NCBI GenBank assembly: GCA_022710725.1
Contig: JAKLGK010000005.1
Location: forward strand, 156,347 to 220,346
From: Verrucomicrobiota bacterium
Lineage (GTDB): Bacteria; Verrucomicrobiota; Kiritimatiellia; CAIQIC01; JAGNIJ01
DNA: 64,000 nucleotides
Direction: 5' to 3'
In this document: positions 3,373 through 52,908 of the stretch, in pieces
How the letters are laid out: each line of letters opens with the position of its first letter
Numbering within the stretch: position 1 is the first letter of the stretch
Position numbers and translations under genes: made by a program
Notes under the pieces: generated by a model
What the model was told of the DNA's origin: nothing
What the model saw: only the letters and a program-made list of their open reading frames with translations
The model's database searches: none

Positions 3373-3466
3373 GGTGGGGCGCGCTCGCCGGGCGCGCCGC
3401 GGCGGCTTCGGCGCAGCCGCCCTACCCGGGCCTGCACATCGAAGAAGACTATCAACGGAGGACTAC

Positions 3467-4456: not shown

Positions 4457-4464
4457 AGGTGACC

Positions 4465-6623: not shown

Positions 6624-6636
6624 CGGGGGTTTCACC

Positions 6637-8505: not shown

Positions 8506-8522
8506 TCCCGCGGCCGCCCCCG

Positions 8523-10306: not shown

Positions 10307-10310
10307 CCCC

Positions 10311-12631: not shown

Positions 12632-12642
12632 TCCTGCGCCGG

Positions 12643-15272: not shown

Positions 15273-16372
15273 ATGCCGCGAAGAAAATCGCGCTGCTCTA
15301 CGGGGCCCGGCCGAACTACATGAAGGTCTTCCCGCTGTGGCGGGAGATGAAAGCGCCGGGCTCGGTCCTGCGCCCGCTGCTGATCCATACGGGCCAGCAC
15401 TACGACGCCAGCATGTCCGACGTGTTCTTCCGGAACCTCGCGATGGACCCGCCGGACCATGCGCTCGGCGTCGGCGCCGGCTCGCACGCGGCCCAGACCG
15501 GCCGGATCATGCAGGCGTTGGAACCGGTCCTCGGGCGGGAGCGCCCCGCGGCGCTCGTGGTGGTCGGCGACGTCAATTCCACGATGGCGGGCGCGCTGGT
15601 GGCGGTCAAGATGGGCATCCCGGTGGCCCACGTCGAGGCCGGCCTGCGCAGCGGCGACCGCGCGATGCCCGAGGAAATCAACCGGGTCGTGACCGACGCC
15701 GTGGCGGACTGCCTCCTGGCCAGCTGCCGCGACGCGGTCGACAACCTCCGGCGCGAAGGCATCCCGGAGGAGCGGATCCATTTTGTCGGCAACGTGATGA
15801 TGGACAGCCTGGAGGCCGCGCTGCCGCGGCTTCCGGAGTCGAAGATCGTGGAGACGCTGGGGCTGGCCCCGCGAGCCTACGTCCTGGTCACGCTGCATCG
15901 CCCGAGCAACGTGGACGATCCCGGCCCTCTCCGGGCGATTCTCGGGGCGCTGGAGGCGCTCTCCGCCGACCGCCCGGTCGTGTTCCCGGTGCATCCGCGG
16001 ACCCGCAAGGTCATGGAGTCAAACGGCGTCGCCCCCGCCCGCGCGGGATTCCGCTGCCTGGATCCGCTGGGATACCTGGATTTCCTGCGCCTCGAGACGG
16101 AAGCCGGCCTGGTCGTCACCGACTCGGGCGGCATCCAGGAGGAGACCAGCTACCTTGGCATTCCGTGTCTGACGCTGCGCGAGAACACGGAGCGACCGGT
16201 CACGATCACCGCCGGCACGAACCGGCTGGTTCCTCCCCGCGGCGGACGGCTGCTGGAGGAGGCGCGCCGCGCCCTCGCGCAGCCGCCCGGCCCCCGCCCG
16301 CGCATCGAGGGCTGGGACGGGCGCGCGGCCTCGCGCATCATCCCCGTGCTGCAAGGCCTGGTGACCGCATGA
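15269..16372 (+). CDS. UDP-N-acetylglucosamine (or UDP-GlcNAc3NAcA) 2-epimerase, non-hydrolysing (WecB/WbpI family)
   Basis: It has HTGQHYD, the HVEAGLRS motif, and DSGGIQEE. Confidence 0.85.
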   Translation: MNAAKKIALLYGARPNYMKVFPLWREMKAPGSVLRPLLIHTGQHYDASMSDVFFRNLAMDPPDHALGVGAGSHAAQTGRIMQALEPVLGRERPAALVVVGDVNSTMAGALVAVKMGIPVAHVEAGLRSGDRAMPEEINRVVTDAVADCLLASCRDAVDNLRREGIPEERIHFVGNVMMDSLEAALPRLPESKIVETLGLAPRAYVLVTLHRPSNVDDPGPLRAILGALEALSADRPVVFPVHPRTRKVMESNGVAPARAGFRCLDPLGYLDFLRLETEAGLVVTDSGGIQEETSYLGIPCLTLRENTERPVTITAGTNRLVPPRGGRLLEEARRALAQPPGPRPRIEGWDGRAASRIIPVLQGLVTA

Positions 16373-17760
16373 AGGGAAGCCCGGCCGTTCGCGAGTTCCT
16401 GTCGCGCCTGTACAGCCTGGTGCCGGCGCGGCGGCGTTGGCCCGCCGCCTTCTGGAAGTGGTACGCGTTCTACGAGGACGCGGAGACCTGGCCCGTCGAG
16501 CGGATGGAGGCGTACCAGCTCGAGCGCATCCGCCGCCTGCTGTCGAGCGCCAGGGCCGGCAGCCCGTTCTACGCGGAAAAGCTCAAGGATGTCCGGCCGG
16601 ACGACATCCGCTCGCTCGCCGATTTCTCCGCCGCGGTGCCGGCGACGACCCGCCGCGAGCTGCGCGAGAACATGGATCGCTGGCCCTGCCGCGACCGGGC
16701 GGCGAAGGCCGAGCGCGGCTGCACTTCCGGGACGACGGGCATGGCGCTGCAATTCCTGCATCCGCCCGGCGACCGTTGGCGCGAGTGGGCGAGCATCTGC
16801 CACCAGTGGAAGCGCGTCGGCTACGATCCGGCGCACAGCGTCCGGGCCACCTTCCGGGGGCTGACGCTGGACCCCGCCGGCGTGGATCGCCGCCCGCACT
16901 CCAACACGGTGCGGTTCGCCATCCTGGGGTTCGACCGCGCGCGCCTGGAGCGCTACGCCGCGGAGATCCGCCGGTGCCGCGCCGAGTTCTTCCACGGCTA
17001 CCCGAGCGCCTTGAGCCTGCTGGCCTCGACGATCCGCCACGAGGCGCTGGATTTCCCGCAACCCCGCGCCATCCTGCTCGCCTCCGAGGTGGTGTATGAC
17101 TGGCAGCTGGCCGCGATCCGCGAGGCGTTCCCCGACGCCCGGCTCTTTGCGCACTACGGTTGCGCGGAGCGCGCCATCCTGGCCGGCTGGTGCGAGCGCC
17201 GGCCCGCGTACCACGTCCTGTCGCCCTACGGCTTCCTCGAGGTCTCGCCGGACACCGGCGAGGTGATGGCCACCAACCTGCACAACGACGTGTCGCCCTT
17301 CATCCGCTACCGCATGACCGATACCGTGCGCGGCGTGTCCGCCGACGCCTGCCCGGATTGCCGCCGCCCGTACCGGCCGCTGGTCGAGGAACTGGTCGGG
17401 CGGCAGGAGGATTACGTGTACAGCCCGGCGCGGGGTTGGATCGGGCCGGCCATCATCACGTACCCGTTCAAGGGCCTGAAGGCGATCCGCGAAACGCGCA
17501 TCGTGCAGACCGCCCCCGGCGAGCTTGTCCTGCAGTTCACCTCCGCGCCCGGCGCGGCGACGGAGGACCTCCGCCGGGAGCAGGAGCATCTCCGCCACGG
17601 CATGCACAAGCTGCTGGGCGAGGAGATGCGGGTCTCCTTCGAGGCCTGCCGGGACCTGGAGCGCGACCGCTCCGGGAAATTCAAATGGATCGTGTCGCGC
17701 CTGCCGCCGCCGGGCGACCACCCGGACGGCCGCCGCGGGAGCCGCCCATGCCCCTCGTAG
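16369..17760 (+). CDS. CapK / coenzyme F390 synthetase-like adenylate-forming enzyme (PaaK family)
   Basis: It has the AMP-binding-like motif TSGTTG and the PaaK-family architecture. It is coupled by an ATGA overlap. Confidence 0.7.
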   Translation: MKGSPAVREFLSRLYSLVPARRRWPAAFWKWYAFYEDAETWPVERMEAYQLERIRRLLSSARAGSPFYAEKLKDVRPDDIRSLADFSAAVPATTRRELRENMDRWPCRDRAAKAERGCTSGTTGMALQFLHPPGDRWREWASICHQWKRVGYDPAHSVRATFRGLTLDPAGVDRRPHSNTVRFAILGFDRARLERYAAEIRRCRAEFFHGYPSALSLLASTIRHEALDFPQPRAILLASEVVYDWQLAAIREAFPDARLFAHYGCAERAILAGWCERRPAYHVLSPYGFLEVSPDTGEVMATNLHNDVSPFIRYRMTDTVRGVSADACPDCRRPYRPLVEELVGRQEDYVYSPARGWIGPAIITYPFKGLKAIRETRIVQTAPGELVLQFTSAPGAATEDLRREQEHLRHGMHKLLGEEMRVSFEACRDLERDRSGKFKWIVSRLPPPGDHPDGRRGSRPCPS

Positions 17761-19244
17761 CCGTCGAACAGACGACGCCCTCCTACCCGGACGAGCCGCC
17801 CTTCCATCCCGGCGAGCGGTATCCGGAAGCGCCCTTCCCGGACACGGCGGGGCCGAACCCGGTGTACGCGGCGGTGCGCCGGCTGCTGATGCGGCTGGGG
17901 ATGGACGAGGCCCACGCGGGCTCGCCGGATTGGAATCCGCTGGGGGCGATCGTCCGGCCGGGCGACACGGTGGTCCTCAAGCCGAATTTCGTGATCAGCC
18001 GGAACCTCGGGGGGGGCGATCTCTTCGCCGTCGTCACGCATCCCTCCGTCCTGCGGGCCCTCGCGGACTACTGCTTCATCGCCCTGCGCGGCCGGGGCCG
18101 CCTGGTGATCGCGGACGCGCCGGAGATGGGCTGCGACTGGGACGAACTCATGCGGGCCCTGCGCCTGGACGCCGTCGCGGATTTCTACCGCCGGGCGGCG
18201 GGCTTCCCGCTCGAGATCTGCGATCTTCGGAATTTCGCCCTGGTGGACAACCGGAAGCCTGCCTACGCGCACAACCGCAAGCCGCTCCCCGGCGATCCGG
18301 CGGGCAGCACCGTCATCAACCTCGGCCGGGAAAGCGCGTTCTACGGGATGGACAGCGCGCGGTACTACGGCGCCGATTACGACCGGCGGGAAACCATCCG
18401 CCACCACCACGGCGAGACCCACGAGTACTGCATTTCCAACACCGTCCTCCGGGCCGACGCGCTGATCTCCGTGCCGAAGCTCAAGACGCACAAGAAGGTG
18501 GGCGTCACCCTGAACCTCAAGGGGCTCGTGGGAATCAACACGAACAAGAACTACCTGATCCATTACCGGCTGGGCACGCCGCGCACCGGGGGCGACCAGG
18601 CGCCCGACGCCCTGGCGGCCGGCGTCCGGCTGAAGGTGCGCGTCCAGCGCTGGCTCTTCGACCGGGCGCTGGCGCGGCAGACCGCGTGGGGCGACGCGGT
18701 CTACGCCGCCGCGCGCGGGGTCTGGCGCCGCCTCTTTCGGCCCTTCGTGGGCGCGACGGCCGGCGAGCCGATCGTGGACGCCGGGAACTGGCACCGGAAC
18801 GATTCGGCCTGGCGCATGACCTCGGACATGGCCCGGATCCTCTTCTTCGCGGACCGCGACGGCGTGCTGCGGGATCGCGTCCAGCGCCGGATGTTCTGCC
18901 TGGTGGACGGGATCGTCGGAGGGGAAGGCGACGGGCCGCTGGCGCCGACCGCCCGGCCCAGCGGGTGCCTCGTGGGCGGGGAGAATCCGCTGGCCGTGGA
19001 CCTGGTCGCCAGCCGGCTCATGGGCTTCGACCCGGCCCGGATACGGCAGTTCGACGTGCTGAAAGACCGCCGCCGGAACTTCGGTTTTTCCGCGCCGGAG
19101 GAAATTCGCGTCGCGCAAGGAGAGCGGGTTGCGCCGGGCGCGGAGTACTTCAGCGCGCGGGACATCGATCCGCGCCTGAATTTCCAGCCTCACTCGGAAT
19201 GGAAAGGCCACATAGAGATAGCGTCCAACGCGGAGGCCCCATGA
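17748..19244 (+). CDS. DUF362-domain protein
   Basis: Roughly 498 aa. Its central region (VLKPNFV...HPSV..., ISVPKLKTHKKVGVTLNLKGLVGIN) matches the DUF362 family. The start is taken inside track ORF 17160-19244. Confidence 0.55.
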   Translation: MPLVAVEQTTPSYPDEPPFHPGERYPEAPFPDTAGPNPVYAAVRRLLMRLGMDEAHAGSPDWNPLGAIVRPGDTVVLKPNFVISRNLGGGDLFAVVTHPSVLRALADYCFIALRGRGRLVIADAPEMGCDWDELMRALRLDAVADFYRRAAGFPLEICDLRNFALVDNRKPAYAHNRKPLPGDPAGSTVINLGRESAFYGMDSARYYGADYDRRETIRHHHGETHEYCISNTVLRADALISVPKLKTHKKVGVTLNLKGLVGINTNKNYLIHYRLGTPRTGGDQAPDALAAGVRLKVRVQRWLFDRALARQTAWGDAVYAAARGVWRRLFRPFVGATAGEPIVDAGNWHRNDSAWRMTSDMARILFFADRDGVLRDRVQRRMFCLVDGIVGGEGDGPLAPTARPSGCLVGGENPLAVDLVASRLMGFDPARIRQFDVLKDRRRNFGFSAPEEIRVAQGERVAPGAEYFSARDIDPRLNFQPHSEWKGHIEIASNAEAP

Positions 19245-21415
19245 AACAGGTGCTGCAGGACCTGACGCAAGCGGCGGTGACGGTGGTCGAGGTGCCCGTG
19301 CCGGAGGCGCCGTCCGGCTTCGTGCTCGTGCGCAACGCGGCATCCATCATCAGCGCCGGCACGGAGAGCGCGCAACTGGCGGCGGCCCAGGCCGGGGCGC
19401 TGCAGAAGGTCTCGGAACGGCCGGAGCTCATCGGCCGCGCCTTTCGGATGCTCCGCGATCAGGGGCTGTCCGCGCTGATGAAAAAGGTCGGCGCGAAGAA
19501 GACCGGTTACGCGCCGCTGGGTTACAGCTGCGCGGGCGTCGTGGAGCGGGCGGGCGCCGGCGTGGACCGCTTCCCGCCGGGCGCCCCGGTGGCCTGCGCG
19601 GGCGTGGGCTACGCGGTGCATGCGGAGTACGCCTGCGTCCCGCAGAATCTCTGCGCGCCCGTGCCGGAGGGCGTGTCGCTGGAAGCCGCGGCCTACACGA
19701 CGCTCGGCGCCATCGCGATGCAGGGCGTGCGGCAGGCCGCCGTGGCGCTCGGCGAGGGCGTGACCGTGATCGGGCTGGGCTTGGTCGGCCTGCTCACCGT
19801 CCAGCTGCTCAAGGCCGCGGGCTGCCGGGTCGCCGGCGTGGACCCGGCCGAGAACGCGCGGAAGTGGGGCCGGACGGCGGGCTGCGACGAGACGGCCGAC
19901 CCGGCCGGGGCGGGCCAGGCCGTGTTGCGCATGACGCGCGGGCTGGGCGCGGACGCGGTCATCATCGCCGCCGCCGCGTCCGGCAGCGAGCCGGTCCAAC
20001 TGGCCGGCCGGCTGGCCCGTTCGCGCGGGCGCGTCGTCATGGTCGGCTCCACGGGGATGGACATCCCGCGCCAGCTCTTTTTTGAAAAGGAGCTGTCCTT
20101 TTGCCTGTCGCGCTCCTACGGTCCCGGCCGCTACGACCCGACCTACGAGGAGGGCGGGCTCGACTATCCGGCGGAGTACGTCCGCTTCACCGAGCAGCGC
20201 AACATGGAAGCCTTCCTCCAGCTCGCGCAGGAGGGAAAAATCCGGCCGGAAAACCTGACCACGCACCGGTTCGCCTTCGCCGACGCCCTGCGCGCCTACG
20301 ACGCGCTGAAGAACAGGGCGGAAGAGCGGGTGGGGATCGTGCTCCAGTATCCCGAGGCGCCCGCTCCCCGCGCGCCGAGGGTGGACCGGCCCGCGGCGCC
20401 CCGCGCGGCGCCGGGCGCGCTGGGCGTCGGCTTCATCGGGGCCGGCTCCTACGCGAGGGCCATGCTCCTCCCGGTCGTCAGCCGGAACGGAAACGCGCGG
20501 TTGCGCGGCGTGGCCGACCAGCGCGTCGACGCGAGCGCCGCCGCGGCCCGGGACTTCGGTTTCGCCTTCGCGGCGGCCGGCGCCGCGGAGGTCCTCGGCG
20601 ATGCCGACACGCAGGTCGTGTTCATCACGACGCGGCACGATTCCCATGCCTCGCTCGTCCTCGAAGGCCTGAAGGCGGGCAAGCAGGTCTGGGTGGAGAA
20701 ACCCCTCGCGCTGACCGTCGAGGAATTGCGCGCGGTGGCGGCCGCCGTGCGCGCGGGCCCGGAAGCCCGCCTGGTGGTCGGGTTCAACCGGCGCTTCAGC
20801 CCGCTCACGCAGTTCATCCGGGCGCGCCTCGGCGAGGCCGGGCCGGTCATGATCCAGTGCCGGGTGAACGCCGGCCCGGCGCCGGCCCGCCACTGGACGC
20901 AGGATCCGAAGATCGGCGGCGGGCGGCTCGTGGGCGAGGGCTGCCACTTCTTCGACCTGGCCTGCTGCCTGGCCGGCGGCCGGCCGGTCTCCGTGGTCAC
21001 GCGCGCGCTGAAGGGCGATCGCGCCGACCTGCTGCCCACCGCGAATTTCGCCGCCCTCGTGAGCTTCGACAACGGCAGCGTCGCCTCCCTCGCATACAGC
21101 GCGCAGGGCTCGCCGCTGCTGCCGAAGGAGCACCTCGAGATCCTGGCCGGCCCGGGCGTCGCGCGGCTCGACGATTTCCGCCGGGCGGAGTGGTACGGGC
21201 CGGCCCGGGCGCTCCGCGAAAAGCTCCCGCAGCAGGACAAGGGGCAGGCGGCCCTGGTGCAGGCGTTCCTGGATTCCGCGCGCCGGGGCGGGCCGCCGCC
21301 GATCTCCTTCGAAGACCTGCTCTATTCGTCCGCCCTGACCCTGGCCGCGCAGCAGAGCCTTGAATCCGGCCGCGAGGCGCGGGTGCGGGACGTGCTGGAC
21401 GCCGCGCAGGCATGA
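19241..21415 (+). CDS. Bi-domain oxidoreductase: N-terminal MDR zinc-type dehydrogenase fused to a C-terminal Gfo/Idh/MocA oxidoreductase
   Basis: The N-terminal half has a GroES-like fold followed by a Rossmann fold (VIGLGLVGLL). The C-terminal half has GVGFIGAGSYA...EKPLAL. Confidence 0.7.
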   Translation: MKQVLQDLTQAAVTVVEVPVPEAPSGFVLVRNAASIISAGTESAQLAAAQAGALQKVSERPELIGRAFRMLRDQGLSALMKKVGAKKTGYAPLGYSCAGVVERAGAGVDRFPPGAPVACAGVGYAVHAEYACVPQNLCAPVPEGVSLEAAAYTTLGAIAMQGVRQAAVALGEGVTVIGLGLVGLLTVQLLKAAGCRVAGVDPAENARKWGRTAGCDETADPAGAGQAVLRMTRGLGADAVIIAAAASGSEPVQLAGRLARSRGRVVMVGSTGMDIPRQLFFEKELSFCLSRSYGPGRYDPTYEEGGLDYPAEYVRFTEQRNMEAFLQLAQEGKIRPENLTTHRFAFADALRAYDALKNRAEERVGIVLQYPEAPAPRAPRVDRPAAPRAAPGALGVGFIGAGSYARAMLLPVVSRNGNARLRGVADQRVDASAAAARDFGFAFAAAGAAEVLGDADTQVVFITTRHDSHASLVLEGLKAGKQVWVEKPLALTVEELRAVAAAVRAGPEARLVVGFNRRFSPLTQFIRARLGEAGPVMIQCRVNAGPAPARHWTQDPKIGGGRLVGEGCHFFDLACCLAGGRPVSVVTRALKGDRADLLPTANFAALVSFDNGSVASLAYSAQGSPLLPKEHLEILAGPGVARLDDFRRAEWYGPARALREKLPQQDKGQAALVQAFLDSARRGGPPPISFEDLLYSSALTLAAQQSLESGREARVRDVLDAAQA

Positions 21416-22716
21416 AGAAGGTCCTCGTCAGCGCGTACTTCTTCATGGGCGGGAGTTCCATGGGGGACATCCGCGTCCGCCGCGCGCTGCGCAATCTGCA
21501 CCGGCACGGCTATAAGCCCGTCATCGTCACCCACGACCGGAACCGCGACCAGTGGCCGGCGTCGGACGACTACGAACTCGTGCCCGTCCGGGGGCTTGAC
21601 CTGGCGAAGGCGTACCGCCGGCTGCGCGGCCGCGAGGGCTCGTTCGCGCCGGCCCCGGCGGCCGGGCCGAAGGACCTGGTGTCGATGCGGACGGGTTTCA
21701 GCACGTGGATCAAGCAGTGGCTGCTTGTGCCCGACCCGCAGATGCTCTGGGGCCCGGCCGCGCTCCGGGCGGCGCGCGAGGTCCTGCGGCGCGAACGCGT
21801 GGACGCCGTGTACGCATCGCTCGCGCCGCGCACGGACATGCGGGTGGCCACGCGGGTCGCGGCGGAGTTCGGGCTTCCCTGCGTCGTGGAGTACCGGGAC
21901 CTCTGGACGTCCAATTTCTACGACAACCTGAAGGCGCCCACGCCGCTGCACCGGTGGCTGCACGCCCGGATGGAGCGGACGGCGATCCGGCGCGCGACCC
22001 GGATCACGTGCGTCAGCACGGGCCTGGCCGACTATCTCCGCGCACGGTACGCCGATCTGCGTCCCGAGATCAGCGTGGATTACGGGTTCTTCGATCCGGC
22101 CGAGTACCCGCCCCGCCCGCCGCGCGAGCCCGGTCGGCCGCTGACCGTCAGCTACGTCGGCAAGTTCTACTTCAGCCGGCAGCCCGGCGTCTTTCTCGAG
22201 GGGCTCCGGCGCTTCGTGGAGCGGACCGGGATACGGCCGGGGCAGTTCCGGTTCCAGTGGCTCGGCGAGATCATCGGTGTGGATCGCCTGCGGGAGACGG
22301 TGGAGGCCATGGGGCTGGGCCCGTTTGTCGAGTACTACGGCCACGTGCCGCATCGGCAGGCGATCGAAACGCTGACGCGCAGCGATGTCGCGCTGATCGT
22401 CCAGGCGCCGCAGGACACAATCCATATCCCCGGCAAGATCTACGAGGCCATGGGCGCGCGGACGCCGATCCTGTACATCTCGCCGCCCTTCGAGGGCACG
22501 GAGATCGTTGAGCGGACCGGCGCCGGCCTGTGCTGCCCGCACGACGCGGAGGCGGTGGGCGAGACGCTGGCCCGCTTCCGGGCGCACCGCGAGCAGGGCG
22601 GCCCGTGGCCGTTCCGCGAGGACGAGGTGCGCCGCTTCGACAAGGACGTCTTTCTCGCCCGTCTGGCGGTCCTGTTCGACCAGGCCATCGCGGACCATGC
22701 GACCTTGCCTGCTTAA
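21412..22716 (+). CDS. Glycosyltransferase family 4
   Basis: It has the GT-B fold and the EGMP-like motif region (IPGKIYEAMGARTPIL). Confidence 0.75.
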   Translation: MKKVLVSAYFFMGGSSMGDIRVRRALRNLHRHGYKPVIVTHDRNRDQWPASDDYELVPVRGLDLAKAYRRLRGREGSFAPAPAAGPKDLVSMRTGFSTWIKQWLLVPDPQMLWGPAALRAAREVLRRERVDAVYASLAPRTDMRVATRVAAEFGLPCVVEYRDLWTSNFYDNLKAPTPLHRWLHARMERTAIRRATRITCVSTGLADYLRARYADLRPEISVDYGFFDPAEYPPRPPREPGRPLTVSYVGKFYFSRQPGVFLEGLRRFVERTGIRPGQFRFQWLGEIIGVDRLRETVEAMGLGPFVEYYGHVPHRQAIETLTRSDVALIVQAPQDTIHIPGKIYEAMGARTPILYISPPFEGTEIVERTGAGLCCPHDAEAVGETLARFRAHREQGGPWPFREDEVRRFDKDVFLARLAVLFDQAIADHATLPA

Positions 22717-24508
22717 AGCCCTCTGGTTGAGCCCCTGGTCCCGGCACCCGGCCTTCCTGTGGCGGAAGATCCGGTCGAAGCTGGGAGCGGAGCCTCCGCT
22801 TGTCGTCCGGCCCCGGCCGCCGGGCGAGGGCCGGTGTGCGGCCCTGCCGGTGGACGGGCTGCGCCGGTGGTTCGAAGCCTGCGAATGGCAGGCGGAGCCG
22901 TACCCGTGGACGCGCGTGTTCCACCGGGATTTCTCCGAGGAGTTCCTGCTTGGACGCTGCCACTCCGGCGGGCCGTTGAATCCGGAGGACCTCGCCAGCC
23001 TGGCCGCCGCCTCGGGGCCGAACGGCGCGCGCGATCTGACCGGCGACATCAAGCTGCCGTGGGAGTTCAGCCGCGGGTACGCCTTCGTGCTGCAGGCGGC
23101 GGGGACGCCTTCGGGGCGCCGCGAGACGGCGGCCGCCGAGATCGCGGAAAAAATCGTCCTCTGGGAAGAGCACAACCGCGATCTCGGCGGGCCCAACTGG
23201 ATCTGCGCCATGGAGGTGGCCCTGCGCGCGGTCAACTGGGCCTGCGCGGACGCCCTCCTCGAGGGCGGCGTCAGCGAGCGGGTGGGCCGCGACCGCTGGC
23301 TGGACGGGCTCTGGACGGCGGGACAGGTGGTGGAGCAGCGGATCGAGGCGCGGAAGGTGTCGTCCAATCATTATCTGGCCGACCTCCTGGGTCTCGCCGT
23401 GATCGGGCTGCATTTTCCGGCCACGGCGGATGGGCGTCGGTGGCGCCGCTTCGGCGTCGCGGAGATGCAGAAGGCCCTGCTGCGCCAGACCTACCGGGAC
23501 GGGGGATTGTACGAATCCTCGCTGCCCTACCACGCGCTGGTCACGGAGATGGCGCTGCTGCTGGCGCTGTTCGCGCGGGAATCGCTGCGCCCGGCCTTCC
23601 TCCGGCGTCTGGAGCGGATGGCCCGCGTGGTCGCGGCGTGCCTGGATGCCGGCGGCGATGTCTTCCCGATCGGCGACGAGGACGGGGGGCGCGTGATCCC
23701 GCTGGATTTCATCTCGCGCCGGGGCCGCGGCGAGATCCTGCTCCAGCTGGCGGAACAGGTTTTTCCAGGGGCCGATTTCAGCCGGCCGTCGGAGGCCTTC
23801 TTTCCCCGCAGCGGCTGGTGGGTGCGGCGGCGCGGCGACTTCGAGGTCTGCCTGGAATTCGGCGGCTACGGGCCATGCGGCTACGGGAGCCACGCGCACA
23901 ACGATACGCTCTCGGTGGTCATCAACTTCCGGGGCAGCCGCTTGTTCGTCGACCCCGGGACGTACCTCTACACGCCGGATCCGGAGGCGCGCAATCGTTT
24001 CCGCTCGGCGGCGGCGCACAACGCGCTGACGCGCGGCGGCCGGGAGCCGTGGCCCCTTCCGACGGACATGCCCGGCCTGTTCCGCCTGCCCGGCCCCGAT
24101 CGACCGGGCCGCGTCACGGAACAGGATCGCTCCGGGATCCGGGTCGAAACGACGACCGGCGGAACTTTCCGCTGTAGCCGTCGCGTCCAGGTGGAGGCGG
24201 ACCGGGTAATCCTGGACGACCGATGGTCGAAGGCGGGGGGCGAACCGCTGACCTGGAACTTCACGCTGGCGCCGGGCGTTCTCGCGGAGAGGGACGGGGC
24301 GGCCGGCTTCCGCCTGGTCGCGCCTTCCGGCGTCCTCCGGCTCGCCTGTTCGCGGCCCGAGGCGGAAGGCCGGGTGGAGGACGGCGAGATGTCCCCCGGG
24401 TACGGCCGCCGCGAGAAAGTCCAGCGGCTCCGAGTCCGCCTGGCCGGCGGGATGCCGGAAGAATGCCTTTGGACCTTGAGCCCGGAACAGCCGCCGAGGC
24501 CGGGCTGA
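22697..24508 (+). CDS. Heparinase II/III-like protein (alpha/alpha toroid followed by a beta-sandwich)
   Basis: The region around NHYLADLLGL, YHALV and HAHNDTLS fits the heparinase II/III family that is common in polysaccharide loci. Confidence 0.6.
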   Translation: MRPCLLKALWLSPWSRHPAFLWRKIRSKLGAEPPLVVRPRPPGEGRCAALPVDGLRRWFEACEWQAEPYPWTRVFHRDFSEEFLLGRCHSGGPLNPEDLASLAAASGPNGARDLTGDIKLPWEFSRGYAFVLQAAGTPSGRRETAAAEIAEKIVLWEEHNRDLGGPNWICAMEVALRAVNWACADALLEGGVSERVGRDRWLDGLWTAGQVVEQRIEARKVSSNHYLADLLGLAVIGLHFPATADGRRWRRFGVAEMQKALLRQTYRDGGLYESSLPYHALVTEMALLLALFARESLRPAFLRRLERMARVVAACLDAGGDVFPIGDEDGGRVIPLDFISRRGRGEILLQLAEQVFPGADFSRPSEAFFPRSGWWVRRRGDFEVCLEFGGYGPCGYGSHAHNDTLSVVINFRGSRLFVDPGTYLYTPDPEARNRFRSAAAHNALTRGGREPWPLPTDMPGLFRLPGPDRPGRVTEQDRSGIRVETTTGGTFRCSRRVQVEADRVILDDRWSKAGGEPLTWNFTLAPGVLAERDGAAGFRLVAPSGVLRLACSRPEAEGRVEDGEMSPGYGRREKVQRLRVRLAGGMPEECLWTLSPEQPPRPG

Positions 24509-24622: not shown

Positions 24623-26143
24623 ATGGCTGAACTGGAAAGAAGGAATCTGCTGATCCTGCTGCCCGACGCCCTGCGGCCGGATCAACTGGGCTGCTACGGA
24701 TCGACGCGCGGCAACTCCCCGGTCGTGGACCGGCTGGCGGCGGAAGGGATCGTTTTCGAGAACGCCTTCACCGTCTCGCCCGTGACCAACGTGTCCGTGA
24801 GCACCCTGTTCACCGGCTGCCTCCCGAAAGTCCATGGCGTGCGGCTGCACACCTCCGTGCTCGCCCGCGGCGTGCCGACGCTGGCGGAGCGGCTCCGGGC
24901 GGAAGGCTACCAGACCGGCGCCGTGATCAGCTGCGCCACGATGGACCGGTCGCGCGGCCTGGACCGCGGCTTCGATTTCTACGACGACGCCTTCGGCCCC
25001 GAGGAGCCCAAGGGAATCAAGGGCGCCGACCCGGACGAGCGCACGATCTCGCGCCATGCCGGGACGGCCGTAAGCCTCGCGTTGCAATGGCTGCGCGGCC
25101 TCGATCCCGGCCGCCCGTTCTTCCTGTTCCTGCACCTGTTCGACACGCACTCGCCCTACGATCCCCCGCGCGACTGGCGCGAAAGCCATCCGACCGCCTA
25201 CGCCGGGCGCGCGGACGGATCGGAAAAGGAAGGCCTAGCTATCAAGCTGGGCGAGTTCGTTCCCGGCCCGGAGGACATCGCGCACCTGAATTACCTGTAC
25301 GGCGGGGAACTGAACCATACCGACCGGCAGGTGGCCCGCCTGTTGTCCGCGTTGAGCGATCTCGGGCGGGCGGAGAACCTGCTGACGGTCTTCACGGCGG
25401 ATCACGGGGTGCACCTGGGCGAGCGCGGCGTGTGGGGGTCCGGCCGGCGGCTCTACGACCGTGAGCTTCGCGTCCCCCTGGTGCTGCACGGCCTGCCGGG
25501 TCTCGCCGGGCGGCGGGTTTCCACGCTTGTTCCCAACACCGACGTGATGCCCACGCTCCTCGAGGCGCTCGGATGCGCCGCGCCGGCCGGCCTCAACGGC
25601 CGGTCGCGCCTGGCTGAGGCGCGGAATCCGGACGCGGCGGACGACACTGTGATCTACGCCGAGACCTTCATGCCGGCCGCGCCGGAGAACCAGCGCCTCG
25701 CTGTGCGCAACCGCCGGTGGAAGCTCATCACCCCCGTGCCCCCGGAGGAGCGGGCTGTCCTGCTCTCGCGTCCTCCCGGCGAGACGTGGCAGCGCATCCG
25801 CCGCCTGCTCTATCGTTTGTGGCACAATCGCAAGGGCCGGAAGGAGCAGTTCCGGCGGGCCCTGGACGTCCTGTTCGGCGGGCGCGAGAAGGACGCCTAC
25901 CGGCGGATCGAGGATCGCGACCGCCAGCTGCTCGGATCGGAGCCGGAACTGTACGACGTGCGGAACGATCCGGGGGAGGAGAAGAACGTCTACGCCGCGC
26001 GGCCCCGCGTGGCGCGGCTGATGGCGAACGAACTGGCCTTCTTTTCCAGCCGGTACATCCGCAGGAGCTCCGCGGCGGAACAATTGTCGCCCGAGCAGCT
26101 TCGCGAGGCGAACGAAGTGCTCCGCCAACTGGGATACAAATGA
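24623..26143 (+). CDS. Sulfatase-fold (alkaline phosphatase superfamily) protein with Thr in place of the formylglycine Cys
   Basis: The N-terminus matches sulfatases (LLILLPDALRPDQLGCYG...DRLAAEGIVFENAF). The catalytic block reads SPVTNVSVSTLFTG instead of SPVCSPSRASLLTG, so Thr/Val/Val replace Cys/Pro/Arg. Confidence 0.7.
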   Translation: MAELERRNLLILLPDALRPDQLGCYGSTRGNSPVVDRLAAEGIVFENAFTVSPVTNVSVSTLFTGCLPKVHGVRLHTSVLARGVPTLAERLRAEGYQTGAVISCATMDRSRGLDRGFDFYDDAFGPEEPKGIKGADPDERTISRHAGTAVSLALQWLRGLDPGRPFFLFLHLFDTHSPYDPPRDWRESHPTAYAGRADGSEKEGLAIKLGEFVPGPEDIAHLNYLYGGELNHTDRQVARLLSALSDLGRAENLLTVFTADHGVHLGERGVWGSGRRLYDRELRVPLVLHGLPGLAGRRVSTLVPNTDVMPTLLEALGCAAPAGLNGRSRLAEARNPDAADDTVIYAETFMPAAPENQRLAVRNRRWKLITPVPPEERAVLLSRPPGETWQRIRRLLYRLWHNRKGRKEQFRRALDVLFGGREKDAYRRIEDRDRQLLGSEPELYDVRNDPGEEKNVYAARPRVARLMANELAFFSSRYIRRSSAAEQLSPEQLREANEVLRQLGYK

Positions 26144-27282
26144 CCGCCCCTCGGCAGATCGTGTTGATCCTGCTCGACGGCCTGCGCGCAGACGCGCTGG
26201 ACGCGCACCCCGTGTTTGACGGCCTCAAGCGGCGCGGCCTTTTCTGCGGGAACATGGTCACGTACGCGCCGTACACCACGGCCTCCATGCACGCGATCCT
26301 CACGGGCGTCTACGGCCCGCGCAACGGCGTGGACTCCTACTTCTCCGCCGCGAAGTTCCGTGCGGACGCCTGCCGCACCCTGGCGCAGTATCTCCGCGCC
26401 GCCGGCTATGAAACCGCCGTGGACATCAACAACCGGAACACGATTCCCGGCCAGGGGTACGAACGGGTGACGGAGTACGACGAGTTTCATCCCGACCACC
26501 GCGGCCGGCTGTTCGAGCGGCACCGCGCTCTGCTGGCCGAAGCGCGGGCGCCCGGCCGGCCGTACCTGCTCTCGCTGCACAATCTCAAGACGCATACCGA
26601 GCTGATCCAGAAGTTCCGCGAAGTCTATCCCGGGGAGAAGGAATCGCTCTACTACGCCGACCCCGCCCGCAACGAGCGGGAATACCGCGGGTACGCGCGC
26701 GAGATGGGCGACTACGTGGCGGCGCTCCTGGACGACCTGGACCGCGCGCGGTTCTTCCGCGACGGCTTGCTGGTCGTGTTTTCCGACCACGGCTGCAGCT
26801 ACGGCGAGCGGCCGGGCGAGCGCATGTACGGGACCTACCTGAACGACTACACCCTCCGGACCTTCGCCTTTTTCCTCGGCGCCGGATTCGCGCCGGGCGC
26901 CCGTCGCGCCGGGCTGCTGCGCACGGTGGACCTCCTGCCGACCGTGCTGGACGCCTGCGGCCTCGAACCGGCGGGCGACGCGCTGGAGCCGGACGGCCGG
27001 TCGTTTTTCCGCGAGGAGGCCGGGGACCGGTGGGCGTTCGTCGAAACCGCCCCGCTGGCGGGAGCCCACCCGTCGCCGTACGCGCCCAACTACCACGGCG
27101 TGGTTTCGGAATCGCGGAAAGTGCTCTATCATTCGGAAACGGACGCGCTGGAATACCTGGCGCGGGAGGGCGGGGCCTGGCGCGCCGCGCCGGCGGACGC
27201 GCCCGGGGCCGAGGAATGGCTGATGCGGCTGTGCGCGTGTTCGCCGCGCGTCAACCGGAAGTGGCTGAACAAGGCATCGTGA
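26140..27282 (+). CDS. Second sulfatase-fold protein, also with a Thr nucleophile
   Basis: The N-terminal core reads [14 protein letters not shown] and the nucleophile block [14 protein letters not shown]. There is no CxPxR motif and no N-terminal membrane segment. Confidence 0.65.
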
Positions 27283-27302
27283 AGGCCGGGAAGGGAGTCG
27301 AG

Positions 27303-28604
27303 ATGAAACAAGTTTATGTCGGGATGTGCGCCGACCTGATTCATCACGGGCACATCAACATCATCCGCGAGGCCCGGAAGCTCGGCGAGGTGACCGTCGG
27401 CCTGCTGGCCGACAAGGCCATCGCGTCCTACAAGCGTGTCCCGCTGCTTTCGTACGAACAGCGCAAGCAGATCATCGAGAACATCCAGGGCGTCGCGCGC
27501 GTGGTGCCGCAGGAGACCTTGGACTACGTCCCGAATCTCCGGGCCCTGAAGCCCGACATCGTCGTGCACGGCACCGACTGGCGCGAGGGCGTCCAGCGGG
27601 AGACCCGCGCGCGCGTGATGGCCGCGCTGAAGGAGTGGGGAGGGGAGCTCGTGGAGCCGGAATACACGCCGGACGTCAGCTCGACGGCGCTGATCCGGGA
27701 GGTGCTGCAGGTCGGCTCCGCGCCGGACGTCCGCCGCCGCAAGCTGCGGCGGCTGCTCGACCTCAAGCCCCTGGTCCGCGTGCTGGAGGTCCATAACGGG
27801 CTCACGGCGCGGCTGGTGGAGCAGGTCTCGGTCGGCGAGGGCACGGCCGCGCGCTCGTTCGATGCGATGTGGGAAAGCAGCCTGACCGACTCCGCCTCGA
27901 AGGGCAAGCCCGACACCGGCGTCGTGGACTTCACCTCGCGCCTCCAGACCATCGAGCAGATCCTGGACGTCACGACCAAGCCCATGCTCGTGGACGCGGA
28001 CAACGGCGGCTTCGCCGAGCACTTCGTCTACCTCGTGCGCACCCTGGAGAGGCAGGGCGTGTCGGCCGTGGTGATCGAGGACAAGACCGGCCCGAAGCGC
28101 AACTCGCTCTTAGGCACGGACGTGGCCCAGGAGCAGGAATCCGCGGAGATGTTCGCCGGGAAGATCACGGCGGGCAAGCGGGCGCAGGCGACGGACGATT
28201 TCATGATCATCGCCCGCATCGAGAGCCTGATCCTGAAAAAAGGCATGGAGGACGCCTTGCGCCGCGCCCGGGCGTACCTGGAGGCGGGCGCCGACGGCCT
28301 GCTCATTCACAGCAAGGAGAAGACGCCGGACGAGATCCTGCGCTTCTGCGAGGGCTATCGGGCCATGGGCGCGCCCGCGCCGCTGGCCGTCGTGCCCACC
28401 ACGTACGCCGACACGCCCGAGGACCGGCTCGCGGAGGCCGGCGTCCGGATCGTGATCTACGCCAACCACCTGCTCCGCGCCGCCTACCCGGCCATGCGGA
28501 AGGCCGCGGAATCCATCCTGCGCCATCACCGCTGCCGCGAGGCCGACGAGGTCTGCATGCCCATCAAGCAGGTGCTGACGCTGATCCCGGGGGCGGAAGG
28601 ATGA
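27303..28604 (+). CDS. Fusion of a TagD-like HxGH cytidylyltransferase and phosphoenolpyruvate mutase (PepM)
   Basis: The N-terminus ([19 protein letters not shown]) belongs to the cytidylyltransferase-like family. The C-terminus has the PEP mutase / isocitrate lyase-family motifs ([19 protein letters not shown]). Confidence 0.8.
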
Positions 28605-29728
28605 CCTGCGAAGAACTTTGGGCGGCGTTCCGGGCCGAGGGGCTCGATTTCTTCACCGGCGTTCCGGACAGCACGTTCGCGCCGTGGATGGCTTTCCTGT
28701 CCGCGAACAACGGGCAGGGGCTGACGGACCTCGCGGCCTCGAACGAGGGCGAGGCCGTGGCCCTCGCGGCCGGGTACCACCTGGCGACGGGGAAGGTCGG
28801 GGTCGTCTACATGCAGAACGCCGGCCTGGGCAACACGGTCAACCCGCTGACCTCGCTGGCGGATCCCGAGGTTTATGCCATCCCCATGATCCTGATGATC
28901 GGCTGGCGCGGCCAGCCCGGGCGCAAGGACGAGCCGCAGCACGTCAAAATGGGGCGGGTGATGAGGCCGCTGCTCGACGCCCTGGAGATCCCGTGGCGCG
29001 ATCTGCCCGCGGCGGCGGATCCCGCCGCCGCGGTGATCGCCGAGCTGCGCGCCCTGGCCCTGCGTGCCAGCGCCCCGGTCGCCCTGATCGTCCGTAGCGG
29101 AATCGTGGAAGGCCGCGCGGTGGCCCCCGCTTCCGACCGCTCGCTGACGCGGGAGCAGGCGCTGGAATGGCTCCTGGAACTCCTGCCGGCGGCGGCCGTC
29201 TCCGTGGCGACCACGGGCAAGACCTCGCGCGAGGTGTTCGAGATCCGCGAGCGGCGCGGGGAGGGCCACGAGAGGGATTTCCTGACCGTCGGGTCCATGG
29301 GGCTGGCTTCCGCGATCGCGCTGGGCGTGGCCCTGCAGAAACCGGGCGCGAAGGTCGTCATCCTCGACGGCGACGGGGCGATGCTGATGCATACCGGAAA
29401 CCTGGCGGCCATCGGCCGCGCCGCGCCGGCGAACCTCTACCACGTGGTCTTCGACAACGGGGTCCACGATTCGACCGGGGGGCAGCGCCTCGCGTCCGCG
29501 TCCGTGGATTTCGGCCGGGTGGCCGAGGCCTTCGGGTATGCCGGCGGCGCCGCGGCCGAAACCGAGGATGAACTCAAGGCGGCCGCCCGGAGCATGCTGG
29601 CGGGCCGGGGGCCGTTCCTGCTGACGGTGCGGGTGCGGCCCGGCGCGCGCAAGGATCTCGGGCGCCCGACCACCACGCCGGTACGGAACAAGACCGAGTT
29701 GATGAAGTTTCTGGGCGCCCTGAAGTGA
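28601..29728 (+). CDS. Phosphonopyruvate decarboxylase (ThDP-dependent, Ppd/AepY-like)
   Basis: It has the ThDP-binding GDGAMLM...N motif, and the two-domain ThDP architecture directly follows PepM. Confidence 0.8.
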
Positions 29729-29732
29729 TCCC

Positions 29733-30872
29733 GTGAGCGCGCAAACGGAATATCTCGGCGCCGGCTCGGTGGCCTGCCTGGGCGAGGTGCTGCAACGGCA
29801 CGCGCCGCGCCGGGTGTTCCTGGTCACCGGGCGGGCCTCCTACGAGGCCTCCGGCGCGCGGGCGGCGATCGAGCCGCTCCTCGGCGCGACGCCGTTCGTC
29901 CGGTTCCACGACTTCGAAAGCAATCCGCGGCTGGAGGACGTCGAGCGCGGAATCCGCCTGTTCCGCGAGTCGGCCTGCGACCTCGTCGTCGCCGCCGGCG
30001 GCGGCAGCGTGATGGACATGGCCAAGTCGGTGCGCTTCCTGGCCGCCCAGGAAGCGGGGGCGCGGGATTGCCTGCGGGATGCGGGCGGCCCGCGGCGGCG
30101 CGGCGCGCCGCTGGCGGCGATCCCGACCACGGCCGGCTCCGGCAGCGAGGCGACGCGCTTTGCGGTGCTGTACGTGGACCGGGAGAAGGAGTCGCTCGAG
30201 CACGAGTTCGTCCTGCCGGACTACGCTATCGTGGATCCCGGCCTGACGGCGCGCCTCTCCCCGCGGCAGACGGCCATTTCCGGGCTGGACGCTCTGTGCC
30301 AGGCGACGGAGTCCTTCTGGTCCGTGCTCTCTACGCCCGAATCGCAGGGTTACGCGCGCCGCGCGCTGGGCCTGGTGCTGGAGCACCTGGACCGTGCCGT
30401 GAACAGGCCCGACGCCGCCGCCCGGGCCGGCATGGCCGAGGCCGCGCACGTCGCGGGCAAGGCGATCTGCATCTCCAAGACAACGGCCTGCCACGCGGTG
30501 TCGTATCCGCTGACGTCGTATTTCGGCGTCCCGCATGGCCTGGCCGCGGCCCTGACGCTGCCGTCCATGCTGGCGTTCAACGCGGGCGTGACGGTCGCGG
30601 ACTGCCAGGATGCGCGCGGGGCGGCATGGGTGGGGCGCATTCTCGGGGAACTGATGGCCCTTATCGGCGCCGATTCCCCGGCGGGCGCCGCGGCGGCGCT
30701 CACCGATTTGATGCGGAACGTGGGGATGCCCGTTCGGCTCGGTGAAGCGGGCATCCGGCCCGCGGACATTCCGCTGATACTCGATCACGGATTCAATCCC
30801 GGCCGCGTAAAGAACAATCCGCGCCGGCTGACACGGGAAGAACTGAAGGCTCTCTTGGACGCTATGGCCTAG
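29733..30872 (+). CDS. Iron-containing (group III) alcohol dehydrogenase, candidate phosphonoacetaldehyde reductase
   Basis: It has the GGGSVMD motif and the Fe-ADH histidine motifs. Its position right after ppd mirrors the PhpC/FomC/Pdh position. Confidence 0.75.
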   Translation: MSAQTEYLGAGSVACLGEVLQRHAPRRVFLVTGRASYEASGARAAIEPLLGATPFVRFHDFESNPRLEDVERGIRLFRESACDLVVAAGGGSVMDMAKSVRFLAAQEAGARDCLRDAGGPRRRGAPLAAIPTTAGSGSEATRFAVLYVDREKESLEHEFVLPDYAIVDPGLTARLSPRQTAISGLDALCQATESFWSVLSTPESQGYARRALGLVLEHLDRAVNRPDAAARAGMAEAAHVAGKAICISKTTACHAVSYPLTSYFGVPHGLAAALTLPSMLAFNAGVTVADCQDARGAAWVGRILGELMALIGADSPAGAAAALTDLMRNVGMPVRLGEAGIRPADIPLILDHGFNPGRVKNNPRRLTREELKALLDAMA

Positions 30873-30935
30873 GTGCGGGGATCCTCTCCCCCATCGGGAC
30901 TTTCGGGCGGAAACCCTCCATTATGCATGCCGGAT

Positions 30936-30963
30936 CGCCGCGAATGTCGCGGCGTTTTTTTTA
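30936..30963 (+). terminator. Rho-independent terminator closing the roughly 31-kb plus-strand operon
   Basis: The hairpin cgccgcga-atg-tcgcggcg (8-bp GC stem) is followed by a T9 run. Confidence 0.65.
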
Positions 30964-47907: not shown

Positions 47908-47963
47908 CCGCGCGGCCCCGGTCATTGACCCGCTGAACAAAACGGGGTAGGGTACTGACCAAG

Positions 47964-49681: not shown

Positions 49682-49802
49682 GCGCTTTCTCATCCCGCGG
49701 CGCAACGTTTTTCCCGGCCGGCTGTCCAATCACGACGGGGCTTGACGGGCGGGCGCAAAAAACCTTAACGTTTGCGGCGTTTTTCACCGGGGACGGGAAC
49801 AC

Positions 49803-52841: not shown

Positions 52842-52908
52842 TCGCCCTCGGCGGGCGGAACTCCGCGACGCCGTAGCCGTCCCGGGCGCGGGATGGTATG
52901 GTGCCCCC

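Follow-up and report, generated by a model that had tools for sequence, protein, structure and literature searches.

Soluble Sulfatase-Fold Proteins as Candidate Phosphonyl Transferases at the End of a Kiritimatiellia Glycan Operon

Introduction

About half of the phosphonate gene clusters of microbes are believed to serve in decorating the cell surface, and the steps that lie past nucleotide activation have been described as enigmatic (PMC6697681, PMC8942020). On the activation side, Fom1 makes the cytidine monophosphate (CMP) conjugate of 2-hydroxyethylphosphonate (HEP), CMP-HEP, from HEP and cytidine triphosphate (CTP), and fusions to PF01467 account for 23.6% of phosphoenolpyruvate (PEP) mutases (PMC6697681). 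PF01467::Ppm fusions occur in 2-aminoethylphosphonate (AEP) clusters too, and PhpC-type iron-dependent alcohol dehydrogenases (Fe-ADHs) convert phosphonoacetaldehyde to HEP (PMC8942020). On the product side, HEP esters have been described on the exopolysaccharide of two actinomycetes, Glycomyces and Stackebrandtia (Yu et al. 2014, cited in PMC8942020 and PMC13576164); according to PMC13576164 and PMC8942020, these were, as of 2026, the sole reported HEP glycans. Here we analyze a window, that is, a stretch of 64,000 nucleotides from an uncultured Verrucomicrobiota bacterium of the class Kiritimatiellia (assembly GCA_022710725.1, contig JAKLGK010000005.1, positions 156,347 to 220,346 of the forward strand; coordinates below count from its first letter), in which a glycan operon closes with five genes, G1 to G5: two soluble sulfatase-fold proteins (G1, G2), a fusion of a cytidylyltransferase (CyTase) with a PEP mutase (PepM; G3), a phosphonopyruvate decarboxylase (Ppd; G4) and an Fe-ADH (G5).

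We propose that these last five genes of a Wzx/Wzy-type operon constitute a phosphonate-decoration cassette, with CMP-HEP as the donor and G1 and G2 as phosphonyl transferases, a reading that, taken as a whole, we hold to be somewhat on the probable side. Neither HEP glycans nor the Fom1-type fusion are new; the novel part is a candidate transferase pair for the attachment step. The initial annotation of this DNA had regarded the chemistry of decoration and transfer as not assignable to a known enzyme. This remains apt for the transfer step only, as CMP-HEP formation corresponds to the characterised Fom1 reaction.

Organization of the Cassette

The window has a G+C content of about 69%, which fills raw lists of open reading frames (ORFs) with spurious frames; genes were called by third-position GC. 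This recovered five tightly coupled genes on the plus strand at 24623-30872, with the same coordinates as in the initial annotation. The features of the cassette are:

24623..26143, plus strand: G1, soluble 506-residue sulfatase-fold protein, Pfam PF00884 (E 1.6e-38)
24785..24787, plus strand: codon ACC for Thr55 of G1, the nucleophile predicted from alignment and conservation
26140..27282, plus strand: G2, soluble 380-residue sulfatase-fold protein, PF00884 (E 1.7e-20) plus an N-terminal PF01663 match
26275..26277, plus strand: codon ACC for Thr46 of G2, the nucleophile predicted from alignment and conservation
27303..28604, plus strand: G3, 433 residues, Fom1-like CyTase::PEP mutase fusion
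27303..27722, plus strand: N-terminal Fom1-type CyTase domain of G3 (PF01467), with the HHGH motif at 27342-27353
27735..28604, plus strand: C-terminal PEP mutase domain of G3 (TIGR02320, PDB matches)
28077..28106, plus strand: PEP mutase signature EDK(x)5NS of G3, ten residues, from a motif search
28601..29728, plus strand: G4, thiamine diphosphate-dependent Ppd, 375 residues (TIGR03297)
29733..30872, plus strand: G5, Fe-ADH, 379 residues, predicted phosphonoacetaldehyde reductase giving HEP
30936..30963, plus strand: strong intrinsic terminator closing the operon, an 8-pair stem (7 G-C) followed by T8

Consecutive genes among G1-G5 either overlap by 4 bp or lie 5-21 bp apart, with the 4-bp ATGA overlaps at G1/G2 and G3/G4 amounting to translational coupling. 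The five genes form the 3' end of an unbroken run of 23 plus-strand genes (2260-30872), which overlap or are separated by gaps of at most 115 bp, and a terminator scan found no internal plus-strand terminator better than chance within this operon.

A Probable CMP-HEP Module

In G3, Pfam matches place PF01467 over residues 9-132 (E 1.9e-14) and PEP_mutase over residues 149-406. The latter domain scores 392 bits with TIGR02320 against an equivalog cut-off of 320, matches PEP mutases and phosphonopyruvate hydrolase in the PDB (E 1e-46 to 1e-50) and carries the EDK(x)5NS motif, as defined in PMC6697681, at residues 259-268. The former has HHGH at residues 14-17 and matches the CyTase domain of Fom1 (PDB 5x3d) with an E of 1.2e-52, 84 of 132 residues (64%) being identical. 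G4 scores 451 bits with TIGR03297 (cut-off 312), is matched by both PF02776 and PF02775, and recovers the Ppd subunits of PDB 9iz3; G5 is an Fe-ADH (E 1.4e-41; Pfam PF00465 and PF25137). Thus, the succession of an HxGH cytidylyltransferase fused to a PEP mutase, a Ppd and an Fe-ADH, which the initial annotation had read from the letters, is borne out, down to the catalytic signature on which the PEP mutase call depended.

Pfam scans of almost every gene of the 64 kb recovered no AEP transaminase, no MpnS/HepD-type or 2-oxoglutarate oxygenase, and no LicD, TagF-like or cytidine diphosphate (CDP)-alcohol transferase. An HEP branch, already proposed in the initial annotation along with the lack of an MpnS/HepD-type oxygenase, is well supported, since the Fe-ADH is coupled to the Ppd, no AEP transaminase is encoded in the window and the CyTase is Fom1-like. 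That annotation had also suggested a CMP-phosphonate donor, with which the 64% identity to the Fom1 domain agrees; the same identity, with an Fe-ADH in the place of an AEP transaminase, suggests a probable preference of G3 for HEP over AEP. Judging from these homologies, we have considerable confidence that the cassette forms CMP-HEP.

A metagenome scan with G3 yielded 69 loci at 53-65% identity, of which the 37 loci of at least 8 kb served for counting neighborhoods from the PepM side. Among these, the CyTase::PepM-Ppd-FeADH triad is present in 28-35 and the position of the Fe-ADH after the Ppd is kept in 28. Wherever the contig is long enough to tell, a Ppd and an Fe-ADH come after CyTase::PepM. 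The triad is therefore a common, conserved CMP-HEP-making module, widespread and already known.

Two recurrent associations of such triads deserve mention in their own right. First, many of them adjoin genes for a NeuB-type nonulosonic acid synthase and a CMP-nonulosonate synthetase-like protein (L048/L049 at 4017-9998, L031, L042, L046, L056, L061, L076); in these organisms HEP may be placed on sialic-acid-like sugars. Second, ten metagenome loci (L033, L034, L036, L040, L041, L052, L055, L064, L066, L068) encode a protein of about 730-820 residues combining tetratricopeptide repeats (TPR) with an Alginate_lyase domain (PF05426); in six of these loci (L033, L034, L040, L052, L066, L068) its gene immediately precedes CyTase::PepM. 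The heparinase II/III-like gene upstream of G1 was considered as a comparable member of the phosphonate module and set aside, as its product shows no detectable similarity to the Alginate_lyase+TPR protein.

G1 and G2 Have a Threonine in Place of Formylglycine

G1 and G2 are paralogues with 30% identity, both called sulfatases in public records. In alignments, T-N-V-S-V of G1 falls on C-G-S-S-R of SpAS2 (4upl), with T55 on the catalytic cysteine, and T-T-A-S-M of G2 on C-A-P-A-R of choline sulfatase, with T46 on the cysteine, a placement also obtained against 6hr5. A profile alignment sets YAPYT of G2 against TTPIC, and the G2 motif TYAPYT is invariant. The Thr/Val/Val that the initial annotation had seen at the positions of C-x-P-x-R is therefore correct for G1, while G2 reads Thr/Ala/Met. 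The threonine in the nucleophile column of both proteins stands firm: a whole-protein motif search found no [CS]x[PA]xR anywhere in G1 or G2, so that a shift of register cannot restore a sulfatase motif. The epithet Cys-less is true of the active-site position only, since G1 has four and G2 six cysteines elsewhere.

Conservation points the same way. Residues D15, T55, H176, D260 and H261 of G1 are invariant, as are D13, T46, D216 and H217 of G2 in 23 sequences. Across 45 G2-family representatives clustered at 50% identity, the nucleophile column holds Thr in 39, Ser in 3, Ala in 1 and Cys in none, with D216 kept in 45/45 and H217 in 44/45. By these sequence features neither protein is a formylglycine sulfatase of the S1 type, and both show the combination of a threonine nucleophile with acidic and Asp-His metal ligands typical of LtaS and EptA.

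The description of the two proteins as soluble also holds: sequence prediction gave no signal peptide, transmembrane or hydrophobic segment in either, and the catalytic domain begins at residue 5-8, such that the N-terminal membrane domain of LtaS/EptA-type enzymes is lacking. Nor are they full-length members of the nucleotide pyrophosphatase/phosphodiesterase (NPP) type: the PF01663 match is limited to the first ~60 residues (29 and 38 bits), with PF00884 spanning the whole core. The AlphaFold models are confident, with a predicted local distance difference test score (pLDDT) of 93.5 for G2 and 86.3 for G1, and a basic helical insertion of ~70 residues distinguishes the G1 orthologues from G1's other relatives.

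Phyletic Spread and Gene Neighborhoods

Orthologues of G1 form about 12 clusters with 44-100% identity; below this level come the sulfatase-TPR proteins (PF00884 plus TPR), an exported and very large family from Acidobacteria, Planctomycetes and others. As a side observation, these exported relatives (P0013-P0120) also have a threonine at the formylglycine position; although their sources name them arylsulfatase or choline sulfatase, proteins of this kind, judged by that residue, cannot be formylglycine sulfatases. The G2 family is small: a profile search of 1.84 billion representatives returned about 60 sequences above 230 bits, of which about 45 are near full length, followed at lower scores by short fragments and then, from ~170 bits, by generic sulfatases. 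A G2-type scan of species-representative genomes recovered 25 loci, all from metagenome-assembled genomes (MAGs). They belong to Verrucomicrobiota, Planctomycetes, Omnitrophota, Hydrogenedentota and an anammox bacterium on the bacterial side, and to Nanoarchaeota, Woesearchaeota, Iainarchaeum, Methanosarcinales and a Thaumarchaeote on the archaeal side. We found no cultured organism with the G1/G2 pair, and the G2-motif scan of species-representative genomes gave no actinomycete.

A second gene of the alkaline-phosphatase (AP) superfamily lies near the G2-like gene in at least 22 of the 25 distinct loci, coding either for a G1-like protein or for a PF01663 protein of ~580 residues; a G1-like partner, where present, is almost always directly upstream of the G2-like gene. 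A nucleotidyltransferase is encoded within 10 kb in at least 18 and a PepM in nine. The exact order of the window, G1-G2-CyTase::PepM-Ppd-FeADH, recurs in L001, with a G1 that is only 47% identical, and in L002/L006 triad and pair are both present, 6 kb apart. Two Omnitrophota loci (L003, L011) show the order PF01663 protein-CyTase::PepM-Ppd-FeADH-G2-like-Wzx; L005, L014 and the thaumarchaeotal L017 have G2-like genes next to a PepM and a split Ppd, together with PF12804 nucleotidyltransferases. In L004 the pair is accompanied by two nucleotidyltransferases and a phosphonate-binding ATP-binding cassette (ABC) transporter, with no PepM, and in L013 it lies near a nucleotidyltransferase fused to a kinase-like domain.

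In two Methanosarcinales loci, L015 and L023, G1-like and G2-like genes adjoin a triad 66-71% identical to that of the window. The CyTase::PepM of the window is thus closer to the versions from these MAGs than to those from Verrucomicrobiota/Omnitrophota loci (54-58%), and the G1-like/G2-like pair of the same loci (L015 at 8626-15966, L023 at 8536-19116) has only 25-34% identity. The comparison suggests that the HEP triad moved between the domains of Life and that the pair had a separate history.

Direct fusions add to this picture. G2-like domains are fused to a PF12804 nucleotidyltransferase (NTP_transf_3, LicC/PntC-type) in P0175 and P0179, to an S-adenosylmethionine (SAM)-dependent methyltransferase in P0177, P0185 and P0196, and to a domain resembling adenosine 5'-phosphosulfate (APS) kinase in P0199. 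Fusion to the maker of a nucleotide-activated headgroup implies that the G2 domain puts the product to productive use, as a hydrolase in that place would create a futile cycle. Taken together, comparative genomics and domain fusions strongly back a functional link of the sulfatase-fold pair to the phosphonate pathway, and on these sequence grounds a cytoplasmic nucleotide-donor transferase is favored over a hydrolase for G2-type proteins.

The other fusion partners suggest further variations. In L002, L005 and L008 a methyltransferase is encoded separately, after the G2-like gene, and these fusions and neighbors hint that the transferred group, or the sugar bearing it, is O-methylated. The fusion to the APS-kinase-like domain had prompted the idea of sulfuryl transfer, which was dropped because APS-kinase-like genes also accompany CMP-HEP modules without G2, following the Fe-ADH in five such loci. 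A Ser/Thr sulfate ester is, moreover, a dead end in this fold. This arrangement resembles the APS-kinase homologue Cj1415 of the Campylobacter phosphoramidate pathway, reportedly the 3'-kinase of the cytidine diphosphoramidate donor.

Proposed Pathway and Its Alternatives

We advance the following mechanism for the cassette. The PEP mutase domain of G3 would convert PEP to phosphonopyruvate, the Ppd would decarboxylate this to phosphonoacetaldehyde, the Fe-ADH would reduce the aldehyde to HEP, and the Fom1-type CyTase domain of G3 would join HEP and CTP into CMP-HEP, four steps that follow by analogy with characterised homologues. G1 and G2 would then act as cytoplasmic phosphonyl transferases: the metal-activated threonine (T55 in G1, T46 in G2) would attack the phosphonate phosphorus of CMP-HEP, CMP would leave, and a covalent Thr-O-phosphonyl enzyme would result. 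The lipid-linked repeat unit would then receive HEP on one of its hydroxyls prior to flipping by Wzx, or else on the hydroxyl of a glycerol or HEP already present on that unit. The two paralogues, being in a fixed adjacent order, might form a complex, serve two acceptor positions or catalyze two successive steps. To the role of G1 and G2 as transferases, deduced from their fold, active-site residues, neighborhoods and domain fusions, we give about even chances; that the glycan is the target of the phosphonate seems to us fairly likely.

Several observations weigh against this proposal or limit its reach. (i) No PepM lies within 10 kb in 16 of the 25 G2-family loci, and hence the G2 family is not specific to phosphonates. 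(ii) None of the 37 PepM-side loci of at least 8 kb has G1-like or G2-like genes, because of which we abandoned the idea that the two belong to the core of the HEP module. (iii) A TagF-like (PF04464) gene is found close downstream of the Fe-ADH in five of these 37 loci, immediately after it in L071, L092 and L056. By analogy, this CDP-glycerol-type transferase is a plausible alternative transferase in other CMP-HEP loci, given the close structural similarity of CMP-HEP to CDP-glycerol. (iv) In L001 a TagF-like gene stands right upstream of the pair, in addition to it, so that the pair may not perform the primary transfer there. (v) The nearest folds to the G1 and G2 models are S1 sulfatases, choline sulfatase and phosphonate monoester hydrolases (template-modelling scores ~0.65-0.75, at most 22% identity); LtaS and EptA are not among the best fold matches. 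(vi) All characterised PF00884 transferases with a threonine nucleophile that we know of (LtaS, EptA, OpgB) are membrane-anchored, extracytoplasmic and use lipid donors. (vii) The best NCBIfam match of G5, TIGR03405 (Phn_Fe-ADH), reaches 193 bits, under the cut-off of 424. The distribution shows that the pair is an accessory rather than a universal solution to the use of CMP-HEP. The window itself has no TagF-like gene, and this leaves G1 and G2 as the sole candidates there.

Some of these points feed the strongest competing explanation, namely that G1 and G2 are hydrolases. They might be CMP-HEP pyrophosphatases in the role of FomD, or phosphodiesterases acting on phosphonate esters so as to edit, trim or recycle the decoration, with the transferase encoded elsewhere in the operon or genome. 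Their closest sequences, like their closest folds, are those of the enzymes named under (v), soluble NPP-type members of the superfamily do hydrolyze nucleotide pyrophosphates with a threonine nucleophile, and both the TagF-like genes and the lack of the pair in most CMP-HEP modules count in favor of this reading. However, the futile cycle that would result from fusing a hydrolase to the nucleotidyltransferase making its substrate speaks against it, as do the translational coupling of the pair to biosynthetic genes and the biosynthetic nature of its neighbors in many phyla (Wzx, glycosyltransferases, methyltransferases). Moreover, Pfam searches of the window show no other recognisable phospho-headgroup transferase. 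We consider hydrolysis unlikely, though a serious contender.

Less probable still, in our estimate, is a role after the first attachment, whereby the pair would extend or cross-link HEP via its free 2-hydroxyl, for instance into teichoic-acid-like HEP-HEP or glycerol-HEP phosphonodiester chains. In favor of this, HEP shares with glycerol phosphate the possession of two reactive groups, the genes are a pair of paralogues whose order does not vary, and L001 combines them with a TagF-like gene. Glycerol esters of HEP have reportedly been found in actinomycete phosphonoglycans (Yu et al. 2014). Against this, poly-HEP has no direct evidence anywhere, and Pfam detects in the window no TagF-like or other enzyme that could make the first attachment.

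A coincidental association, with G1 and G2 as degenerate or specialised members of the sulfatase family that act on the glycan, for instance as phosphatases or sulfatases, and share an operon with the phosphonate genes, would suit their public names and the wealth of sulfatase genes in Kiritimatiellia genomes. Yet, a threonine is not convertible to formylglycine, the C/SxPxR motif is absent, the co-occurrence with phosphonate and nucleotidyltransferase genes repeats itself across bacterial and archaeal phyla, and the fusions point to the same link, all of which makes it very improbable. Least probable of all is a diffusible fosfomycin-type natural product with G1 and G2 in tailoring or self-resistance, for although homologues of Fom1, Fom2 and FomC cover the first three fosfomycin steps (PMC6697681, PMC8942020), Pfam finds in the window no Fom3 (the B12 radical-SAM methyltransferase), HppE-type epoxidase, FomD, resistance kinases or exporter, the cassette closes a glycan operon of 23 genes that also encodes Wzx and glycosyltransferases, and the related loci are glycan loci too.

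If transfer by G1 and G2 is correct, they would stand for a new functional class of the AP superfamily, that of soluble cytoplasmic transferases which take a nucleotide-activated phosphonate or phospho-alcohol as donor, form a Thr-phosphonyl intermediate and esterify a sugar on the nascent glycan. We put this forward tentatively, at somewhat less than even chances.

The Surrounding Operon and Wider Locus

The remaining 18 genes of the operon, as classified by Pfam and NCBIfam, and other features of the window are as follows:

2260..24508, plus strand: upstream part of the operon, 18 genes of glycan type
46498-47907: priming Bac_transf, outside the operon
47964-48956: exosortase EpsH
48920-49681: DUF3485 protein
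49803-52841: TMEM260-like O-mannosyltransferase with TPR repeats, 1012 residues
52942-53772: PF01676 metalloenzyme of the alkaline-phosphatase superfamily, 276 residues

The upstream part encodes two DegT aminotransferases, an epimerase, a methyltransferase, an AsnB-like protein, a uridine diphosphate N-acetylglucosamine (UDP-GlcNAc) 2-epimerase, a PaaK-like ligase, a DUF362 protein, a fused dehydrogenase and a heparinase II/III-like protein. It also has a Wzx (PF01943) at 12628-14088, two GT4-type glycosyltransferases beginning at 14109 and 21412, and, at 11078-12631, a 517-residue multi-spanning membrane protein without a Pfam match, which we infer to be a Wzy-like polymerase. The flippase, polymerase-like protein, glycosyltransferases and priming Bac_transf, the last lying outside the operon, are together the components of a Wzx/Wzy-dependent locus. 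The initial annotation had described one terminator-bounded operon with wzx, wzy and glycosyltransferase genes; the 3' terminator, Wzx and glycosyltransferases are indeed present, while the 5' boundary near 2179-2194 is weakly marked and the Wzy is a putative one.

Regarding the repeat unit, a WbuX-type N-acetyl sugar amidotransferase with HisH-like and HisF-like partners (8523-11081) predicts, from its homologies, an acetamidino sugar, and the operon has a WbpB/WbpD-like fusion besides the DegT aminotransferases and the UDP-GlcNAc 2-epimerase. The wider locus at 46498-53772 resembles an exosortase-type exopolysaccharide region, and a phosphonate-decorated glycan might be carried on PEP-CTERM proteins instead of being a free exopolysaccharide. 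Directly past the operon terminator, at 31084-33681, lies a gene for an 865-residue protein with a signal peptide, which combines a calcineurin-like metallophosphoesterase with fn3 and 3-keto-disaccharide-hydrolase (LamG-like) domains. Metallophosphoesterases are also encoded in L004, beside the phosphonate-binding transporter, and in archaeal ppm clusters (PMC8942020).

Implications

The locus and its relatives offer a concrete, testable candidate for the attachment of phosphonates to glycans, in the form of a small family whose catalytic residues are conserved, whose two genes keep a fixed arrangement and whose domain fusions are informative. If our proposal is true, the pair would supply the phosphonyl tailoring transferase that phosphonoglycans have long been missing. 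The family spans Bacteria and Archaea, including the Thaumarchaeota-type clusters that are thought to feed the marine phosphonate pool, and with the locus HEP glycans would extend from two actinomycetes to the Planctomycetes-Verrucomicrobia-Chlamydiae (PVC) group, Omnitrophota and several archaeal lineages. The naming of such proteins also has consequences, as under the label of sulfatase G1 and G2 would be counted among the glycan-degrading enzymes in sulfatase-rich lineages such as the Kiritimatiellia.

Comparison with Known Systems

In its biosynthetic part the cassette is closest to Fom1, Fom2 and FomC of Streptomyces fosfomycin synthesis, with which it shares a PF01467 domain N-terminal to the PEP mutase, followed by a Ppd and an Fe-ADH, and the expected product, CMP-HEP. 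It differs in lacking Fom3, Fom4/HppE and FomD and in belonging to a glycan operon rather than an antibiotic cluster. Further, cytidylylation is transient in the fosfomycin pathway, while in the cassette the decoration probably draws on the nucleotide conjugate as its donor. In terms of the product, the nearest parallel are the HEP phosphonoglycans of actinomycetes, which, as cited in the sources named in the Introduction, are likewise HEP-ester exopolysaccharides with a pepM cluster among polysaccharide genes; those systems are actinobacterial, unlike the Kiritimatiellia MAG of the PVC group studied here. Since the G2-motif scan gave no actinomycete, these organisms may use a different transferase.

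Among the thaumarchaeal clusters of the Nitrosopumilus type, the MAG locus L017 has a PepM::NTP_transf_3 fusion, a split Ppd, an Fe-ADH, a G2-like gene, a PF01663 gene, a GT2 glycosyltransferase and a Wzx. It differs from the window in having a PF12804-type nucleotidyltransferase and, as the partner of G2, the PF01663 protein in lieu of a G1-type one; moreover, an MpnS is expected there, with none in the window. Between the Fe-ADH and the G2-like gene of L017, where the methylphosphonate synthase might be expected, there is an ORF of 249 residues without a Pfam match (8792-9541), too short for a full MpnS. Sulfatase-like genes have reportedly been noted in the methylphosphonate cluster of N. 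maritimus (Metcalf et al. 2012). Our search of the literature on sulfatase genes with pepM/PEP mutase found one passing mention, of Selenomonas clusters with multiple sulfatases.

With the LicC/PntC and LicD system for phosphocholine and AEP, the cassette would share the logic of cytidylyl activation of a small phospho- or phosphono-headgroup followed by transfer to a surface glycan (PMC6697681). The nucleotidyltransferase of that system is PF12804 and that of the window PF01467, though G2-like proteins elsewhere are fused to PF12804, and the transferase proposed for the window is of the alkaline-phosphatase superfamily in the place of LicD.

Within that superfamily, the phosphonate monoester hydrolases (PMHs) RlPMH, BcPMH and SpPMH and the S1 sulfatases are the nearest solved folds to G1 and G2, including the C-terminal subdomain, and the PMHs act on phosphonate esters; however, PMHs and S1 sulfatases derive a formylglycine from C/SxPxR, in contrast to the threonine of G1 and G2, which lack such a motif. 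In their catalytic residues G1 and G2 instead resemble LtaS, EptA/MCR-1 and OpgB, sharing with them the core of the superfamily, the threonine nucleophile and the Asp/Glu, Asp and His metal ligands. Those enzymes transfer a phospho-alcohol headgroup to a glycan or lipid via a covalent threonine intermediate, which is what we propose for G1 and G2. They do so with an N-terminal membrane domain, outside the cytoplasm and from a phospholipid donor, whereas the soluble G1 and G2 would use a nucleotide donor.

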